Of a stretch of 31,000 bases of DNA, positions 20,453 through 31,000 are shown piece by piece; positions within the stretch are counted from its first letter, which is position 1, and every line of letters begins with the position of its first letter. This DNA is from Bacteroidales bacterium. GTDB lineage: Bacteria > Bacteroidota > Bacteroidia > Bacteroidales > Prolixibacteraceae. A program made the position numbers and the translations under genes. Where the stretch lies: positions 1 through 31,000 of the forward strand of contig JBBRGI010000001.1 of assembly GCA_038240855.1 (NCBI GenBank). The letters are read 5' to 3'. Below the pieces are notes generated by a model. That model made no database searches. It worked only from the letters and a program-made list of their open reading frames with translations, and had not been told where the DNA came from.

Positions 20453-20776
20453 TTAATCCAGATGAAAAACCTCGTCCATATTGGCCCACCATTCACCTTC
20501 AGCACGATTTTCAACAGGTCGTTGCATCGGCATCATGATTTTCCACCATTCCTGTGTTTTAGCATCAGCAGCCATTTTGGCCATATCAGCAGCGAAATCA
20601 TCGCCGGCATATTCCATATAGGCAAACAGCATTCCGTCTTTGTGAAAAATAGAATAATTCCTGATGTTGCAGGCGGTAATCATCTCCAAAATTTCAGGCC
20701 AAACGGATGAATGATATTCCTTGTAACGCTCAAAGTTCTGCGGGTCAACCCCGATAATTTGCCCAAATCGTTTCAT
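20453..20776 (-). CDS. rhaM: L-rhamnose/L-fucose mutarotase (RhaM/YiiL family)
   Basis: YKEYHSSVWPEI, IRNYSIF, LFAYMEY, TQEWW, EVFHLD motifs; 107 aa. Confidence 0.85.
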   Translation of the reverse strand: MKRFGQIIGVDPQNFERYKEYHSSVWPEILEMITACNIRNYSIFHKDGMLFAYMEYAGDDFAADMAKMAADAKTQEWWKIMMPMQRPVENRAEGEWWANMDEVFHLD

Positions 20777-20781
20777 GTGAG

Positions 20782-20835
20782 TAGATTTTTAGTCATTAAG
20801 TTGTCATTTATAGTCAGTTATTGTCATTAGATTTT
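20782..20835. repeat. Short GTCA-core tandem repeats flanked by TAGATTTT direct repeats
   Basis: GTCA at 20792, 20803, 20813, 20823; TAGATTTT at 20782-20789 and 20828-20835. Confidence 0.55.
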
Positions 20836-20842
20836 AATTTCC

Positions 20843-22519
20843 TTAGAGCAGTACAATTTCATAAATACCGGGAGCCTGGCTGTATTCTTTCAGAACCAGT
20901 CTCACCTTTTGAGCAGTTGTTTTGGGTAGCTTTATCTCCAGCTTGCTGCCGATAGTGGTACCTTTGTATATTGTTTTCCATTGATCCCCGGTCAGAGCCT
21001 GAATTTCGAATGCCTTTACTGACTGGCCTCTTTCATAAAGAATTGCTTTGGATATTTTTTCAGGTTTACCTAGATCAATCTCAACCCAGGGGTTTAAACC
21101 CTTTTCTTCGGGTTCCCAATATGCGCCTGACCAATCGCCATTGGTTACAGAACTCAATTCAACCCATTGATGGTTGATCCATTGACCCTTAGGATTTGAA
21201 GATGCTGTCAAGGATTTCATATAAGAAAGTGAATTAGAACTGATTTCTAATGGCTCAACATTCATCACACTGCCTGAACATTCAAGTTCGACAATAGTAT
21301 TAACCGGCTGCAATTCCTCTGCTGAGAGTTCGATGGCATAACCTTTAGCCAACTTGGTCAACTTCACTTTTCCGCCGTGGGCAAGTTTGCAACTTTTAAT
21401 TTCCAATCCCAAATCGGGAATTGTAATTATTGGAGTAGTTCCAGTCCACTTCAAGATATGCAGATAAATGAAATTTCCTTTGCGGGTACTCACGCCCCAG
21501 TCGGCAGGTTTAAACGGACCACCGCGGGTTTCATAAATAGTATATCCATATTTCTGAAGCCACTGTCCCATTTCTTTCAATCGGGAAATTTGTTCAGGTT
21601 CAATACTTCCATCCGATTTTGGCCCCACATTAAACAACAAGTTTCCATCGCCACCGGCTGAACGTACTAACGATTGCAAACACTGCTCCAGCGATTTCAC
21701 CTTGTCATTGGGTTTCCAGGCCCACTGGCTGGCAATGGTCATGCAGGTTTCCCACGGACGGTCGATCTGGAATCCGCCAACCCGCTGCTCCGGTGTATCA
21801 AAATCACCTTTGGCACCGGTCCTGTTGTTGATGATAATATCTGGCTGAATCTGATGTGCGAAATCAATCACACTTTGACCGCGAACTGCATCAAATTTCT
21901 GCGGAACATCGAACCAAAGCACGTAAAGCGGTCCGTAATTCAGCAAAAGTTCTGCCACCTGCTTTTTCAAATAGGTGGTGTATGCATCTAAATTACTTTT
22001 TTCACGTGCAACACTGCCACCTGGACTGGTAAGCGGAAAATCGGGATTATACCAGTCACAGGTTGAATAATAGGTGCCAAAAGCCATACCTTGTTTACGG
22101 CAAGCTTCGGCCAGTTCCTTCACCACATCGCGTTTCAAAGGCGAATTCATGATGTTGTGATCGGTTTGACGCGTATTCCACAAACAAAATCCATCATGGT
22201 GTTTGGTCGTCAGAACAATGTATTTCATACCGGCAACTCTGGCTACATTCACCCAATCATCGGCATTGAAATTTTTCGCGTCGAATTGTTTGTAAAGGTT
22301 GTCGTATTCCTCCACCGGAATTTCGCGACCGCGCGACCATCCAATTTCAGTTCCTTTCAATGAGACAGGTCCCCAGTGGATAAACATCCCGAAACGGGCA
22401 TCTTTCCACTTTTCAATTTTCTGTTCGTTGCCGATTTGTTTTTGGGGGACTGATTGTGCCATTGACCCTTTCAGTAGAAAGGAAATCAGCAAAAGAATTA
22501 AAATTAGTTTTGTTTTCAT
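20843..22519 (-). CDS. GH29 alpha-L-fucosidase with C-terminal F5/8 (CBM32-like) domain
   Basis: WKDARFGMFIHWGP, KHHDGFCLW, VLWFD (nucleophile), DFDTPEQ, PWETCMT, LLFNVGP; C-terminal PWVEIDLGK. Confidence 0.92.
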   Translation of the reverse strand: MKTKLILILLLISFLLKGSMAQSVPQKQIGNEQKIEKWKDARFGMFIHWGPVSLKGTEIGWSRGREIPVEEYDNLYKQFDAKNFNADDWVNVARVAGMKYIVLTTKHHDGFCLWNTRQTDHNIMNSPLKRDVVKELAEACRKQGMAFGTYYSTCDWYNPDFPLTSPGGSVAREKSNLDAYTTYLKKQVAELLLNYGPLYVLWFDVPQKFDAVRGQSVIDFAHQIQPDIIINNRTGAKGDFDTPEQRVGGFQIDRPWETCMTIASQWAWKPNDKVKSLEQCLQSLVRSAGGDGNLLFNVGPKSDGSIEPEQISRLKEMGQWLQKYGYTIYETRGGPFKPADWGVSTRKGNFIYLHILKWTGTTPIITIPDLGLEIKSCKLAHGGKVKLTKLAKGYAIELSAEELQPVNTIVELECSGSVMNVEPLEISSNSLSYMKSLTASSNPKGQWINHQWVELSSVTNGDWSGAYWEPEEKGLNPWVEIDLGKPEKISKAILYERGQSVKAFEIQALTGDQWKTIYKGTTIGSKLEIKLPKTTAQKVRLVLKEYSQAPGIYEIVLL

Positions 22520-28986: not shown

Positions 28987-29032
28987 ATGCTTATTGTTTG
29001 TATTAATTAAGATTATTTAAGAGGATTATGTT

Positions 29033-29848
29033 TCAACTTCTGATATTCTCTTTTAGAAAATGCATCATTTTCAGGTTTAATTCCCACAAGTCGGTAACCG
29101 GTTGATTGGTGAATGGAAGCGTTTGCATATATGGAGGAGGCCCAAATTCGACAGTGATACACAACGATTTCCGGCCTATTGCTTTTTGACAATCGACAAT
29201 TCGTTGCCACCATTCTAAATGTTTTACTAAAGCGTATTCATTTTCAGGTGTAAACGGATTAGCTACCTGGGGCCCTTGTGCATTTCCTACCCGTGCGTGT
29301 ATAAGATTGCTCCGCTTAACAGCCTCCTCAACAGTGTCCTCCTGTCCTTCGAGTAAACTCTCTGATACACAACACCAATGCGAGAAATCAGCAGCAATCC
29401 GAAGGTCAGGAAACCTATTAAAGAATTGTTTTGCAACCGAGGCTGAATACAAAAAACGCCCACGGTGCAACTCATGGACAATTGGCACCCCGGTTTCTTT
29501 TGAAACCCTGTCTATCATTTCAACAATCCGTGAGTTGACCTCAAAATCCAGGTAATCTTTACCAGTTTGGGAATTTATCAATACGGGGGAAAAACCTGCA
29601 ATAAACTTCAGGTGGCTTTCGAGCTGATGAAGGTACTCCTGAAAAGTTCCGGTTATATTCATATTCTGCTGCCCAAGCAAGAGTAAATCATACTTTTTAA
29701 ACAATCGATGAATGTTAAAAAAGTCGGTAGCTTGAGGAGGGATATTGTACTCAATACCATCGAACCCTGCATTTTTTACTTTGCTGAAAAATGTTTCTGC
29801 AGTTAGTTGTTCATTGCCCCAATGGGAGATAAAATAATGTATGTCCAT
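29033..29848 (-). CDS. Xylose-isomerase-like TIM-barrel sugar isomerase/epimerase family protein
   Basis: Likely start MDIHYF at 29848 (track extends to 29953); GFDGIE, HELHRGR, ADFSHW, HARVG, VEFGPPPY metal-ligand pattern. Confidence 0.75.
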   Translation of the reverse strand: MDIHYFISHWGNEQLTAETFFSKVKNAGFDGIEYNIPPQATDFFNIHRLFKKYDLLLLGQQNMNITGTFQEYLHQLESHLKFIAGFSPVLINSQTGKDYLDFEVNSRIVEMIDRVSKETGVPIVHELHRGRFLYSASVAKQFFNRFPDLRIAADFSHWCCVSESLLEGQEDTVEEAVKRSNLIHARVGNAQGPQVANPFTPENEYALVKHLEWWQRIVDCQKAIGRKSLCITVEFGPPPYMQTLPFTNQPVTDLWELNLKMMHFLKENIRS

Positions 29849-30148
29849 ATTATAAGCATTAAATTGTCTGTAAATAAAGCAGAATAGATGATTAATTATC
29901 GTGCTTTTTACTCCTGGCTCCGATTTGGGTTGAAGTGAAAAAGGATCCGACATTATATCATTTTTACTGACTACTTGTTATGCGGGCAATACATTTGTTA
30001 AAGGTTAGATTTGTCTGTAAATTTAGCTGAGATATTCATCATTATCTTTACCAATTCAGTCAATTAATTGCACTATTACGTGATTTTAATGTTGCCAGTT
30101 TTTATTAATTTTGAGCAATTTAGTTTTAATCTACTCATTTAAACGCCT

Positions 30149-31000
30149 ATGTATTGTGAACAAATTAGCGAAACGCTTACCTTTCATCTCCGAAATACTG
30201 CATTTTTGAGCTTTAGTTCCGATTCTGGCTATCAGGATATCATCAGCCCCTTTACACGGATATACCTGATTACTGAAGGATGTGGTTCTTTAATTATTGG
30301 AAATCATAAAATACCCTTAGAAGCAGGAAATCTTTATTTGATTCCAAGTTTCACTCCATGTACTTATTTTTTTTCTGAAGGATTACACCACTATTATATT
30401 CATTTTAGTATCGATGCGCCAAACGGGCTAAGTCCATTCAATGTGTATGCATATACCAATAAAACCGCGGCAACAGAACTCGACAAAAACCTTTTTAATC
30501 GTTTGGTAGAAATCAATCCTGACTTACAAATTCCTCATCATCACCCGAATGTATATCAAACTAAATTGTGGCTGAATAAAAAGGTAACTTATACATCTGC
30601 CAGTCATTATCTGGAAACAACAGGAATTCTTAAACAACTGTTCTCCCGTTTTCTTGAACCCTGTCAAAGCCAGATTATAACAAGTATATTGAAATACAAC
30701 ATTCAGCCTATACTACTCCATATCCAAAATAATCTGGGACGCGACATTTGCGTTAACGAGCTTGCTGACATGGCATGCTTCTCGAAAGACCACTTTTCAA
30801 GGGTATTTAAATCAATTACCGGAATGGCTCCCTGCGATTACATTATCAGGAAACGGATTGAAAGAGCTCAATTTCTGCTACTCACTACCGACATGGGACA
30901 AAAAAAAATCATTGAAGAAACCGGATTCAGGAGTGCATCCTACTTTTCGCGTATCTTCAAAAAAATCACCTCTTATACCCCAGAGAAATACCGGAAACAA
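30149..31000 (+). CDS. AraC-family transcriptional regulator with N-terminal cupin-like domain, runs off window end
   Basis: Not in ORF track (no stop in window). Hand translation from ATG 30149: MYCEQ...SPFTRIYLITEG...ELADMACFSKDHFSRVFKSITG...RIERAQFLL...GFRSASYFSRIFKK. Confidence 0.92.
   Translation, partial: MYCEQISETLTFHLRNTAFLSFSSDSGYQDIISPFTRIYLITEGCGSLIIGNHKIPLEAGNLYLIPSFTPCTYFFSEGLHHYYIHFSIDAPNGLSPFNVYAYTNKTAATELDKNLFNRLVEINPDLQIPHHHPNVYQTKLWLNKKVTYTSASHYLETTGILKQLFSRFLEPCQSQIITSILKYNIQPILLHIQNNLGRDICVNELADMACFSKDHFSRVFKSITGMAPCDYIIRKRIERAQFLLLTTDMGQKKIIEETGFRSASYFSRIFKKITSYTPEKYRKQ

Follow-up and report, generated by a model that had tools for sequence, protein, structure and literature searches.

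A recurrent gene cassette linking a membrane di-iron oxygenase fusion and a URO-D-like protein to alpha-L-fucosidases: a candidate pathway for modified 6-deoxyhexoses

Why should genes for two alpha-L-fucosidases be accompanied by genes for a membrane di-iron oxygenase and a protein of the URO-D/MtaA type? The window that we analyzed is an entire 31-kb contig of an 81%-complete metagenome-assembled genome (MAG) obtained from sediment metagenomes; the sequencing runs that hold the locus are DNA runs only. The original prediction described an AraC gene divergent from genes for a TIM barrel and an oxygenase fusion, followed by those for RhaT, a URO-D-like protein, two GH29 enzymes, and a mutarotase. 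We verified all eight open reading frames (ORFs) at the coordinates and on the strands below, and the Pfam families obtained by profile search agree with this order.

30149..31000, plus strand: AraC-family regulator (PF12833, 73 bits; PF00165, 65 bits), 3' end beyond the contig end
29033..29953, minus strand: xylose-isomerase-like TIM barrel (P0003; weak AP_endonuc_2 match, 22.5 bits; AF2 fold)
26950..28986, minus strand: FA_hydroxylase-FNR-[2Fe-2S] fusion (P0001), 678 aa in a single ORF (FA_hydroxylase, FAD_binding_6, NAD_binding_1, Fer2)
28027..28986, minus strand: membrane di-iron hydroxylase domain, residues 1-320 of the fusion (PF04116, 65 bits, cut-off 31)
26950..28026, minus strand: FNR-type FAD/NAD(P)H reductase and plant-type [2Fe-2S] ferredoxin, residues 321-678 of the fusion (PF00970, PF00175, PF00111)
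26687..26949, minus strand: 263-bp spacer upstream of rhaT, containing a candidate Bacteroidota promoter (sequence and motif search)
25652..26686, minus strand: RhaT-family sugar:H+ symporter (PF06379, 184 bits)
24290..25546, minus strand: URO-D-like protein (P0002), 418 aa (PF01208, 80 bits, residues 215-413 only)
22554..24284, minus strand: secreted GH29 alpha-L-fucosidase with F5/8 type C domain (PF01120, 248 bits; signal peptide MKLKISLISLLIVFLFVEGFGQ)
20843..22519, minus strand: secreted GH29 alpha-L-fucosidase with F5/8 type C domain (PF01120, 286 bits; signal peptide)
20453..20776, minus strand: cytoplasmic RhaM/YiiL-family mutarotase (PF05336, 115 bits)

Genes of the rhaT-to-rhaM block are separated by only 5-105 bp, whereas the gap between the oxygenase gene and rhaT measures 263 bp and contains a Bacteroidota-type -7 box (TAAGTTTG, at 26770-26763, 76 nt ahead of the rhaT start), so that the cassette probably forms two transcription units. 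Sequence and motif searches found no operator common to the araC-TIM spacer and the spacer upstream of rhaT. A divergent AraC gene also adjoins oxygenase homologues in six further loci (L006, L013, L015, L017, L018, and L024) and on rhizobial plasmids.

To place this arrangement, we counted linkage within a 10-kb radius over 53 related oxygenase loci, leaving out one Opitutaceae clade (28 loci). A URO-D-like gene lay within 10 kb of the oxygenase in 20 of the 53 loci (directly adjacent in 12), rhaM in 17, GH29 in 14, and the TIM barrel in 11 (directly adjacent in 9); at least one of these four was present in 32/53. The linked loci span Bacteroidota, Verrucomicrobiota, Kiritimatiellales, Acidobacteriota, and Anaeromyxobacter, and because linkage recurs in so many unrelated genomes, the association of oxygenase, URO-D-like, rhaM, GH29, and TIM-barrel genes is not due to chance. 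Consistently, the oxygenase block stays linked in relatives to the block of rhaT, URO-D-like, GH29, and rhaM genes, and the unlinking that the original prediction named as a ground for refutation was not seen: L003 and L009 carry oxygenase, RhaT, URO-D, GH29, and rhaM in the order of the window, and the two blocks remain together in L010, L013, L027, L029, L038-L040, and L064.

The cassettes carry a transporter, a mutarotase, and a regulator, and a kinase, aldolase, or dehydrogenase is absent from those of the related loci examined; with FucI encoded elsewhere in the genome (contig C127), this composition fits a pre-processing step. Going by gene context, we tentatively favor, at slightly below even chances, a role of the cassette in pre-processing a modified 6-deoxyhexose, with O-methylated fucose or a sugar like it as the likeliest substrate. 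We found no publication on such a cassette and, if this reading is right, removal of a methyl cap from fucose-like sugars would be a step that no one has described. In the proposed scheme, (i) the GH29 enzymes and the products of neighboring GH95, GH106-like, and esterase genes would release the sugar; (ii) RhaT would take it in and RhaM would equilibrate its anomers; and (iii) the methyl ether would be removed in the cytoplasm, with ordinary fucose then entering the FucI pathway. More specifically, in a first module the 678-aa fusion would act as a self-sufficient, O2- and NAD(P)H-dependent membrane di-iron monooxygenase hydroxylating the carbon beside the ether oxygen, as AGMO does and MocDEF is thought to do; the hemiacetal would collapse to sugar plus formaldehyde, and the TIM-barrel partner may isomerize or epimerize substrate or product. 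In a second module, the long URO-D-like protein would serve as a zinc-dependent methyltransferase I handing the methyl over to a corrinoid protein whose gene lies on another contig of the MAG (C97); MtaA-type and homocysteine-methyltransferase proteins would carry out the onward transfer. Gene content, linkage, folds, motifs, and the presence of corrinoid and oxidase genes are observed; the identity of the sugar, the reaction mechanism, and any division of the modules between oxygen regimes are inferred, and a pairing of oxic with anoxic routes is only one option. The genome, of sediment origin, carries heme-copper and bd oxidases.

Signal peptides were predicted for both GH29 enzymes and for neither RhaM nor the URO-D-like protein. 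RhaT scores at best 302 bits against the NCBIfam RhaT equivalogs, below their cut-off of 468, so its substrate need not be rhamnose, and relatives have an SSF symporter in its place; RhaM reaches 53.5 against the rhamnose-mutarotase equivalog (cut-off 99.6). The substitutions behind the altered GH95 pocket of the original prediction are likewise present, Ser for Asn in one motif and Cys for His in DACPPFQ.

In the oxygenase domain, 13 homologues share the His boxes H192x4H197x3H201, H210xxHH214, and H285xxHH289 without exception, and hydrophobic segments lie near residues 45-70, 79-100, 169-197, and 236-255; in the ferredoxin part of the fusion, the cluster cysteines C631, C636, C639, and C663/C666 are invariant as well. 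The reductase part resembles Hcr, GbcB, PaaE, and the reductase part of Hmp; for the stand-alone oxygenases of Verrucomicrobiota, a reductase gene was not found nearby, which counts against the demethylation reading. As this Pfam family consists mostly of lipid enzymes, and homologues are annotated as sterol desaturases or sphingolipid hydroxylases, the oxygenase might have a lipid, sterol, or hopanoid as its substrate, perhaps as a glycoconjugate aglycone, its sugar-gene neighborhood being incidental. The Opitutaceae clade indeed sits in a non-sugar context (GTPase, YchJ, PhyH, MFS, and epimerase genes). Outside that clade, however, the partners are sugar transporters, a mutarotase, fucosidases, AraC, and a sugar-type TIM barrel; in rhizobia they are moc- and iol-type genes and a sugar kinase; and no lipid-metabolism gene recurs among the loci. 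We therefore regard a lipid substrate, including the lipid or steroid aglycone raised earlier as an alternative, as very unlikely, and the expectation of a di-iron enzyme in a sugar rather than a lipid setting is borne out by the occurrence of the clade in sugar or cyclitol loci.

The TIM-barrel partner matches AP_endonuc_2 below the cut-off (22.5 versus 31.1 bits), and its AF2 model (pLDDT 87) has a xylose-isomerase-like fold, for which Foldseek returned ketose 3-epimerases, IolE, and YcjR at E about 2.5e-9. Its invariant E161, D189, H219, and E269 fit the metal ligands of the family. Homologues begin at M36, placing the true start probably at 29848. With the TIM partner in Bradyrhizobium it shares 23% identity (E 2e-13).

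The URO-D-like protein fails both the MtaA/CmuA model (TIGR01463; 44 bits, cut-off 235) and the HemE model (22, cut-off 303). In fold, the predicted MtaA-likeness holds: the AF2 model (pLDDT 88.9) has MtaA (4ay7) as its best PDB match and MtaA and MtsA as its best Swiss-Prot matches. H305-x-C307 and H392-N393 are invariant; the former corresponds to the H-x-C of the MtaA zinc site, while the third metal ligand is His, not Cys. Orthologues with 56-83% identity adjoin the oxygenase in several phyla. The original prediction had cautioned that the window lacks corrinoid and formaldehyde-detoxification genes. No corrinoid protein is encoded in the window itself, but at genome level the corrinoid part of this caveat falls: C97 encodes a corrinoid protein, two MtaA-type proteins, a homocysteine S-methyltransferase domain, and CobW, along with a sugar MFS transporter and a paralogue of the URO-D-like protein. 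Neither MtaB, nor a separate methyl-tetrahydrofolate methyltransferase, nor an HxlA-type gene for formaldehyde fixation or detoxification was found in the 81%-complete genome. The C97 set resembles the "mlp" clusters proposed for methyl-sulfur/methyl-selenium metabolism, and its link to sugars may thus be coincidental. Elsewhere, corrinoid proteins occur in cassette loci L005, L038, L040, L070, and L071, and in a SusC/SusD locus (L129) a URO-D-like paralogue lies beside a corrinoid protein, a MetH-type activation domain, and a short MtaA-like gene. From its modeled fold and motifs, we consider the URO-D-like protein a candidate methyl-sugar:corrinoid methyltransferase.

Neither a methyl group nor its position is specified by anything in the sequence. 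FA_hydroxylase enzymes also hydroxylate or oxidize C-methyl groups and cleave long-chain ethers; hence the modification might be of another kind (e.g., a different ether-linked substituent), or the sugar itself might be oxidized (e.g., by hydroxylation of the C6 methyl), with the URO-D-like protein acting as a cofactor-free decarboxylase or other non-methyl enzyme. UroD structures match that protein nearly as closely as MtaA does, a His occupies its third ligand position as in the GHG motif of UroD, and in most cassette loci a corrinoid gene was not seen within 10 kb. Against this, the genome already has a FucI route for unmodified fucose, UroD-type decarboxylation would need a pyrrole-like electron sink that sugars lack, the H-x-C motif is common to the MtaA class and not to HemE, and corrinoid proteins recur beside members of the URO-D-like family. 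On balance, we consider non-methyl chemistry unlikely.

By sequence comparison, the oxygenase and the URO-D-like protein are separable modules. Five complete genomes with a URO-D-like gene, including an orthologue 76% identical, have no oxygenase homologue, and L006, L007, L008, L011, and L014 have the oxygenase and TIM barrel with no URO-D-like gene nearby; since each gene occurs without the other, neither enzyme needs the other. One demethylase would suffice, however, and the frequent pairing of the two enzymes thus counts against the demethylation reading. The two enzymes could instead be neither redundant nor oxygen-switched, acting on different substrates or positions (e.g., two methyl sugars from a single glycan) or one after the other, in which case the oxygenase would hydroxylate the ether-bearing ring carbon to give a keto-sugar for the TIM barrel and methanol for the URO-D-like/corrinoid system. 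Such a division of labor would suit the 12 loci of several phyla in which the two genes lie side by side and are presumably transcribed together, the resemblance of the TIM barrel to keto-sugar epimerases such as YcjR, the presence of MtaB (methanol:corrinoid methyltransferase) with a corrinoid protein in L005, L070, and L071, and a MocD-Rieske-reductase fusion that, as a third oxygenase in L010 and L027, suggests several specificities. We nevertheless judge it rather unlikely, given that each gene is found without the other, that few of the loci have MtaB, and that a search of the window's genome did not find it.

The demethylation reading that we favor draws on the rhizobial relatives. Genes for a Rieske ferredoxin of the MocE family, an FAD reductase, a TIM barrel of the same subfamily, and a sugar kinase accompany the rhizobial oxygenase homologues (40-50% identity). 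On a Rhizobium leguminosarum plasmid the homologue is flanked by MocA/MocC-like genes on one side and a MocD-like gene on the other, with iolE and iolD adjoining. The MocD-Rieske-reductase fusion adjoins the oxygenase in L005, L007, L010, and L027 and is 52% identical to the rhizobial MocD-like gene product. Together, the MocE-type neighbors, the MtaA-like fold, and the corrinoid-adjacent paralogues suggest methyl-ether chemistry.

Among known systems, MocD/MocE/MocF with MocC of rhizopine catabolism (Sinorhizobium/Rhizobium) likewise combines a His-box membrane di-iron oxygenase, a [2Fe-2S] carrier, a flavin reductase, and a xylose-isomerase-like TIM barrel in a locus dedicated to a small, polar carbohydrate with a methyl ether, the methyl ether here being proposed; MocD is described as the oxygenase converting 3-O-methyl-scyllo-inosamine to scyllo-inosamine (PMC2593844). 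It differs in that MocD is of the FA_desaturase type (PF00487) rather than PF04116, in its Rieske cluster as opposed to a plant-type cluster with the electron chain fused into one polypeptide, and in its inositol rather than fucoside context; the MocDEF activity is itself a genetic inference, which, like the different Pfam family of MocD, counts against the demethylation reading. The only described enzymatic sugar O-demethylation, that of 6-O-methyl-D-galactose by a P450, ferredoxin, and ferredoxin reductase in marine bacteria (Reisky et al. 2018; PMC6292453), resembles the proposed route in being O2-dependent, three-component, located in glycan utilization loci, and formaldehyde-yielding. It relies on a heme-thiolate enzyme with soluble, separate partners and another sugar, in contrast to membrane di-iron chemistry, and there is no P450 gene in the window. 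At family level, AGMO/TMEM195 and Erg25 share the FA_hydroxylase Pfam family and His-box di-iron site, and AGMO cleaves an ether via hydroxylation of the carbon beside the oxygen, the chemistry proposed for the fusion; their substrates are lipids and their electrons come from tetrahydrobiopterin or cytochrome b5, whereas in the window enzyme the FNR-[2Fe-2S] chain is part of the same polypeptide, and sugar genes surround it. Finally, three-component corrinoid O-demethylases and methyltransferases (URO-D-fold MT I such as OdmB/VdmB; methanogen MtaA/MtsA, 4ay7) share the URO-D/MtaA fold and H-x-C motif, and members of the URO-D-like family are encoded beside a corrinoid protein, an activation domain, and a short MtaA-type protein. 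The URO-D-like protein is only 15-16% identical to MtaA and has about 80 additional residues that lie in a beta-rich N-terminal region. Phenolic O-demethylases belong to the URO-D superfamily (PMC10418091), and demethylation of sugars under anaerobic conditions is described as unknown (PMC12316285); these corrinoid systems are known to act on aryl methyl ethers, methanol, and methylthiols rather than on sugars.

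Profile searches of the ORFs recovered the domains and the gene order that the original prediction had claimed, including the divergent AraC gene. Apart from the TIM-barrel gene, each gene below was assigned by profile.

Genes and spacer of the cassette, in minus-strand order, with the divergent regulator last
29953-29033, minus strand: xylose-isomerase-like TIM-barrel gene, first in minus-strand order
28986-26950, minus strand: fusion of FA_hydroxylase, FAD_binding_6, NAD_binding_1, and Fer2 domains, 678 aa
Between fusion and RhaT, minus strand: spacer of 263 bp
26686-25652, minus strand: RhaT
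25546-24290, minus strand: URO-D-like gene, 418 aa
24284-22554, minus strand: GH29 fucosidase with an F5/8 type C domain
22519-20843, minus strand: GH29 fucosidase with an F5/8 type C domain
20776-20453, minus strand: RhaM-family mutarotase
30149-31000, plus strand: AraC gene, divergent from the TIM-barrel gene

The contig is complete at 31 kb and belongs to a MAG of 3.4 Mb (81% complete) from sediment metagenomes; among sequencing runs, the locus occurs in DNA runs only, all from one sediment study, and the closest homologues of its oxygenase are found in MAGs of Prolixibacteraceae, Marinilabiliales-type, and Cytophagales bacteria, which places the organism in Bacteroidota. Positions 1-20413, the plus-strand half of the contig, form a glycan-degrading locus encoding two GH95 proteins, a GH43-like protein, three SGNH esterases, a third GH29, a 1,231-aa GH106-like protein, two BD-FAE esterases, and a LytS/LytTR pair. 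The last gene of its glycoside-hydrolase operon (14122-16074, plus strand) codes for a secreted 650-aa protein with a marginal CelD_N match only. The two GH95 copies are 43% identical: in copy 2 (3518-5707) the motifs are the canonical [11 protein letters not shown] and DTHPPFQMD, whereas copy 1 (ORF 1-2430, plus strand) carries [11 protein letters not shown] and DACPPFQID within 1075-2010, and its altered pocket could be suited to substituted fucose or L-galactose.

Within the cassette, the RhaT ORF is, by its sequence, a member of the RhaT family (PF06379, 184 bits) that falls short of the L-rhamnose:H+ symporter equivalog (best NCBIfam score 302 bits vs. a cut-off of 468), and its sugar need not be rhamnose. 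Similarly, the RhaM ORF matched PF05336 (115 bits) and fell short of the TIGR02625 equivalog (53.5 vs. 99.6). Signal peptides are present on the GH29 proteins and absent from RhaM and the URO-D-like protein, a distribution that fits a scheme in which the fucosidases would release the sugar outside the cytoplasm, RhaT would import it, and processing would take place in the cytoplasm. Scanning for sigma-70 promoters and terminators yielded no more sites than in shuffled sequence. The two regulatory spacers share no 10-mer in direct orientation and a single inverted 10-mer match, which overlaps a TAnnTTTG promoter-like box.

We fetched 80 genome loci encoding relatives of the oxygenase and clustered their neighboring genes. 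A tree of the oxygenase homologues splits a 28-locus Opitutaceae clade from the remainder, and neighbors within 10 kb of the oxygenase were counted separately for the two groups.

Neighbors within 10 kb of the oxygenase, at 53 loci outside the Opitutaceae clade and at 28 Opitutaceae loci
URO-D-like gene: 20/53 (directly adjacent in 12); Opitutaceae, 2/28
rhaM: 17/53; Opitutaceae, 0/28
AraC gene: 15/53; Opitutaceae, 0/28
GH29: 14/53; Opitutaceae, 3/28
TIM barrel: 11/53 (directly adjacent in 9); Opitutaceae, 0/28
SSF symporter: 9/53; Opitutaceae, 3/28
RhaT: 6/53; Opitutaceae, 2/28
Any of URO-D-like, rhaM, GH29, and TIM barrel: 32/53; Opitutaceae, 5/28

These synteny counts rule out chance adjacency of the cassette genes. 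Loss of linkage in relatives, which the original prediction had named as the result that would speak against it, was not seen, and the blocks stay together. For instance, in a Cytophagales MAG, a fusion of 70% identity precedes RhaT, the URO-D-like gene, GH29, and rhaM, arranged as in the window, and a 60%-identical fusion lies inside a SusC/SusD locus, where a divergent AraC gene, the oxygenase, the TIM barrel, and GH29 occur together. Carriers of the full fusion are Bacteroidota and a few Akkermansiaceae and Oceaniferula; a stand-alone version of the hydroxylase (~335 aa, 50-60% identity) was seen in Verrucomicrobiota, Kiritimatiellales (Pontiella), Phycisphaerae, Acidobacteriota, and Anaeromyxobacter. 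Across these phyla, the URO-D-like orthologues show 56-83% identity, which points to horizontal mobility of the cassette. The 28 Opitutaceae loci (L043-L084) carry stand-alone oxygenase homologues amid genes for a GTPase, a YchJ-like protein, a PhyH dioxygenase, an MFS transporter, and an NAD epimerase; this non-sugar context is conserved, and the clade probably has a different function. The cassettes contain a transporter, a mutarotase, and a regulator and lack a kinase, an aldolase, and a dehydrogenase, and the MAG encodes a canonical L-fucose isomerase away from the cassette. Thus, the cassette looks like a step that converts a modified sugar to an ordinary one.

Members of the FA_hydroxylase superfamily are recognized by three histidine boxes (Hx3-4H, Hx2-3HH, and Hx2-3HH) and about four transmembrane helices. 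Residues 183-308 of the fusion matched PF04116 (65.1 bits vs. a cut-off of 31), and the di-iron boxes (H192/H197/H201, H210/H213/H214, and H285/H288/H289) were invariant in 13 homologues of 44-86% identity. By hydropathy alone (Kyte-Doolittle scan), the fusion has hydrophobic stretches near residues 45-70, 79-100, 169-197, and 236-255. A sequence search against PDB chains gave no match for the oxygenase domain. The reductase and ferredoxin domains scored above their cut-offs (PF00970, 44.6 bits; PF00175, 56.0 bits; PF00111, 30.8 bits), and the [2Fe-2S] cysteines (C631, C636, C639, and C663/C666) were invariant in the homologues. This half of the protein is arranged as in PaaE, GbcB, and Hcr, and no NCBIfam equivalog cut-off was reached. 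The presence of an FNR-type reductase and a plant-type [2Fe-2S] domain with conserved cysteines indicates that the entire electron chain resides within the fusion protein. Were such a self-sufficient FA_hydroxylase fusion to act on a water-soluble substrate, it would also be attractive for biocatalysis.

The TIM-barrel ORF scored below the cut-off of the PF01261 profile (22.5 vs. 31.1 bits) and had no match among PDB chains in a sequence search. Its structural model (pLDDT 87) matched ketose 3-epimerases and IolE (E ~1e-9, probability 1.0), and residues E161, D189, H219, and E269, which correspond to the Glu-Asp-His-Glu metal ligands of the family, were invariant; the modeled fold and these ligands assign the ORF to the xylose-isomerase-like TIM barrels. 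As listed, the ORF begins with 35 residues of low pLDDT that are missing from all 11 homologues, and the true start is probably the ATG at 29848. The alignment between the corresponding Bradyrhizobium partner of the oxygenase and the TIM-barrel protein of the window spans 255 residues and takes in all four metal-ligand motifs (E 2e-13), indicating that the pairing of oxygenase and TIM barrel is old.

This rhizobial pairing belongs to a wider set of oxygenase homologues (37-50% identity) from plasmids and chromids of rhizobia. In Mesorhizobium and Bradyrhizobium, the oxygenase gene is preceded by a divergent AraC gene, a ribokinase-family kinase gene, and a PanB-like gene, and followed by genes for a Rieske ferredoxin, a TIM-barrel "sugar phosphate isomerase/epimerase," and an FAD-dependent reductase. 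Likewise, downstream of the homologue on pSymA of S. meliloti come genes for a "MocE family 2Fe-2S ferredoxin" and an FAD reductase. On a plasmid of R. leguminosarum, the homologue is flanked on one side by an ABC importer, a MocA-like gene, and a TIM-barrel gene, and on the other by a MocD-like "fatty acid desaturase family" gene, with iolE/iolD adjoining the locus. MocD has been described as an oxygenase turning 3-O-methyl-scyllo-inosamine into scyllo-inosamine (PMC2593844), and the organization of the moc genes is given in PMC10107442. Both types of His-box oxygenase lie side by side in the moc-like locus of R. leguminosarum Vaf-108 (L142, 2887-10175 of plasmid NZ_CP018236.1), namely, the "sterol desaturase family" homologue of the window protein and the MocD-like gene, and the same pair recurs in four Bacteroidota and Pontiella loci (L005, L007, L010, and L027). 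There, the window-type oxygenase adjoins a 750-aa FA_desaturase-Rieske-FNR fusion, the N-domain of which shares 52% identity with the rhizobial MocD-like gene product and which, judged by its domains, combines the equivalents of MocD, MocE, and MocF in a single polypeptide. Neither a MocD-like gene nor such a fusion was found in the 81%-complete MAG. One of these loci (L005, 3425-12368), from a 70%-identical relative, encodes a corrinoid protein, MtaB, DUF1638, the MocD-Rieske-reductase gene (apparently split in two ORFs), and then the oxygenase, followed by a CE15-like glucuronoyl esterase; this gene set may point to a connection with the metabolism of methanol or 4-O-methyl-glucuronate.

The rhizobial and moc-type contexts group the oxygenase with enzymes for small polar carbohydrates, beside the only system in which a His-box di-iron enzyme is thought to cleave a carbohydrate methyl ether. 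They also argue against the alternative raised in the original prediction, in which the oxygenase would act on a lipid or steroid aglycone.

The second candidate, the URO-D-like protein, matched PF01208 in its C-terminal half only, and failed the cut-offs of both MtaA/CmuA (TIGR01463, 44.2 vs. 235.4 bits, again limited to the C-terminal half) and HemE (TIGR01464, 22 vs. 303 bits); a separate full-length URO-D gene (PF01208, 333 bits) is present on contig C73 of the MAG. A sequence search against PDB chains matched only a 50-residue stretch of a UroD. The best PDB hit of its structural model (pLDDT 88.9) in Foldseek was 4ay7, MtaA of Methanosarcina mazei (E 9.6e-13, TM 0.55/0.66), and the best structural matches in Swiss-Prot were MtaA and MtsA, with UroD only slightly behind. 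The description of this protein as MtaA-like thus holds for its URO-D-type fold, which is closest to MtaA, but not for the TIGR01463 cut-off or the His-x-Cys...Cys site. More specifically, 14 orthologues retain H305-x-C307, H392-N393, D264-D265, and a GGG loop; in alignment, short MtaA-type proteins of two other loci (contig C97 of the MAG and L129) match H305 and C307, whereas the third position is H392 instead of their Cys. The shared H-x-C, together with a His as third ligand, sets the protein apart as a distinct long (~400-420 aa) branch of the URO-D fold, in which a His-Cys-His metal site is possible. The URO-D superfamily takes in phenolic O-demethylases (PMC10418091).

The original prediction had cautioned that corrinoid genes are lacking. 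This is true of the window but not of the MAG, as a corrinoid protein is encoded on contig C97, where one co-directional run on the minus strand (L099, 576-9916) surrounds a long URO-D-like paralogue. The run comprises a 3-keto-disaccharide-hydrolase/TIM fusion, the paralogue, a sugar-type MFS transporter, CobW, a homocysteine S-methyltransferase domain protein, two short MtaA-type proteins (one fused to a thioredoxin-like domain), and the 221-aa corrinoid protein (9251-9916), and it may pass sugar-derived methyl groups to homocysteine. The run could also be an "mlp"-type cluster, since clusters of several MtaA-like proteins and a corrinoid protein have been proposed to serve methyl-sulfur or methyl-selenium metabolism (PMC10418091). 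In a complete genome of the same order as the MAG, a SusC/SusD polysaccharide utilization locus (L129, 1878-12155) encodes in succession FecR (an anti-sigma gene), a long URO-D-like paralogue with a corrinoid protein directly adjacent, a MetH-type activation domain, a short MtaA-type protein, SusC, and SusD, a corrinoid methyl-transfer set that looks complete from its gene content. Corrinoid proteins occurred within 10 kb of the oxygenase at 4 of the 53 loci outside the Opitutaceae clade; among cassette loci, they are present in L005, L038, L040, L070, and L071, and MtaB in L005, L070, and L071. A third long URO-D-like paralogue of the MAG (contig C9; L100, 6537-17180) follows a divergent AraC gene and adjoins a GH10 xylanase gene, with SDR, ROK kinase, SIS, FAD-oxidoreductase, phosphotriesterase-family, and GFO/IDH/MocA genes downstream, and each long paralogue may serve another methylated sugar. 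Searches of the 81%-complete MAG found no RhaA, no MtaB, and no HxlA, the formaldehyde-fixing enzyme of the RuMP route, and pterin-binding domains were confined to MetH and one further 295-aa ORF on contig C180.

Oxygenase and URO-D-like protein do not depend on each other's presence. A strong match to the long URO-D class was found in 8 of 301 sampled genomes of the phylum, five of which are complete genomes without an oxygenase homologue (one has a URO-D-like orthologue of 76% identity); conversely, several loci with oxygenase and TIM barrel have no URO-D-like gene nearby. As each module occurs without the other, an obligate coupling of the two in one two-step reaction is unlikely, and the pattern fits two independent ways to treat the same class of sugar. 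We tentatively read the cassette, at somewhat less than even confidence, as a pair of separable modules that pre-process a methylated 6-deoxyhexose, most likely by removing its O-methyl group. The first would be a membrane di-iron ether monooxygenase that is self-sufficient and has a TIM-barrel protein as its dedicated partner, and the second a His-Cys-His branch of the URO-D fold acting as methyl-sugar:corrinoid methyltransferase. Evidence that oxygen separates the modules is circumstantial and leans that way: the MAG encodes heme-copper and bd oxidases and comes from sediment, and the cassette carriers belong to lineages that are presumably typical of oxic-anoxic interfaces. The original interpretation is thus supported in part: the linkage of the cassette is kept in relatives, and oxygen may be what separates the modules. 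A bolder reading, in which bacteria of oxic-anoxic interfaces would share a mobile two-module system for deoxy-sugar demethylation, with O2-dependent and O2-independent routes to the same free sugar, appears rather unlikely.

Methylated forms of fucose, rhamnose, and xylose are known from the rhamnogalacturonan-II of pectin, from polysaccharides of algae and cyanobacteria, and from dissolved organic matter, and a methyl ether on a sugar stops the normal catabolic enzymes. To our knowledge, the P450 for 6-O-methyl-galactose is the sole known sugar demethylase. Our literature search found no description of methyl-fucose or methyl-rhamnose catabolism or demethylation, no sugar substrate reported for an FA_hydroxylase enzyme, and no report of a corrinoid-dependent sugar demethylase. 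According to a 2025 study, the mechanism of anaerobic sugar demethylation is still to be discovered (PMC12316285). If the bolder, two-route reading is true, the cassette would provide the first examples of sugar demethylases that are not P450s, one of them also the first to work anaerobically, and the long URO-D branch would be previously unrecognized. The cassette offers two clonable candidates, of which the oxygenase, as a single polypeptide, should be easily assayed; a regulator and a transporter accompany them, and homologues are carried by cultured relatives (rhizobial strains); thus, the question of sugar demethylation is directly testable.

Related kinds of chemistry, namely, multi-component oxidative sugar demethylation and corrinoid O-demethylation, are already known. 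The 6-O-methyl-galactose system (PMC6292453) has a cytochrome P450 component, whereas profile searches detected no P450 domain among the window ORFs. MocDEF differs in its oxygenase family: MocD is of the FA_desaturase type (PF00487) and the window oxygenase belongs to PF04116.
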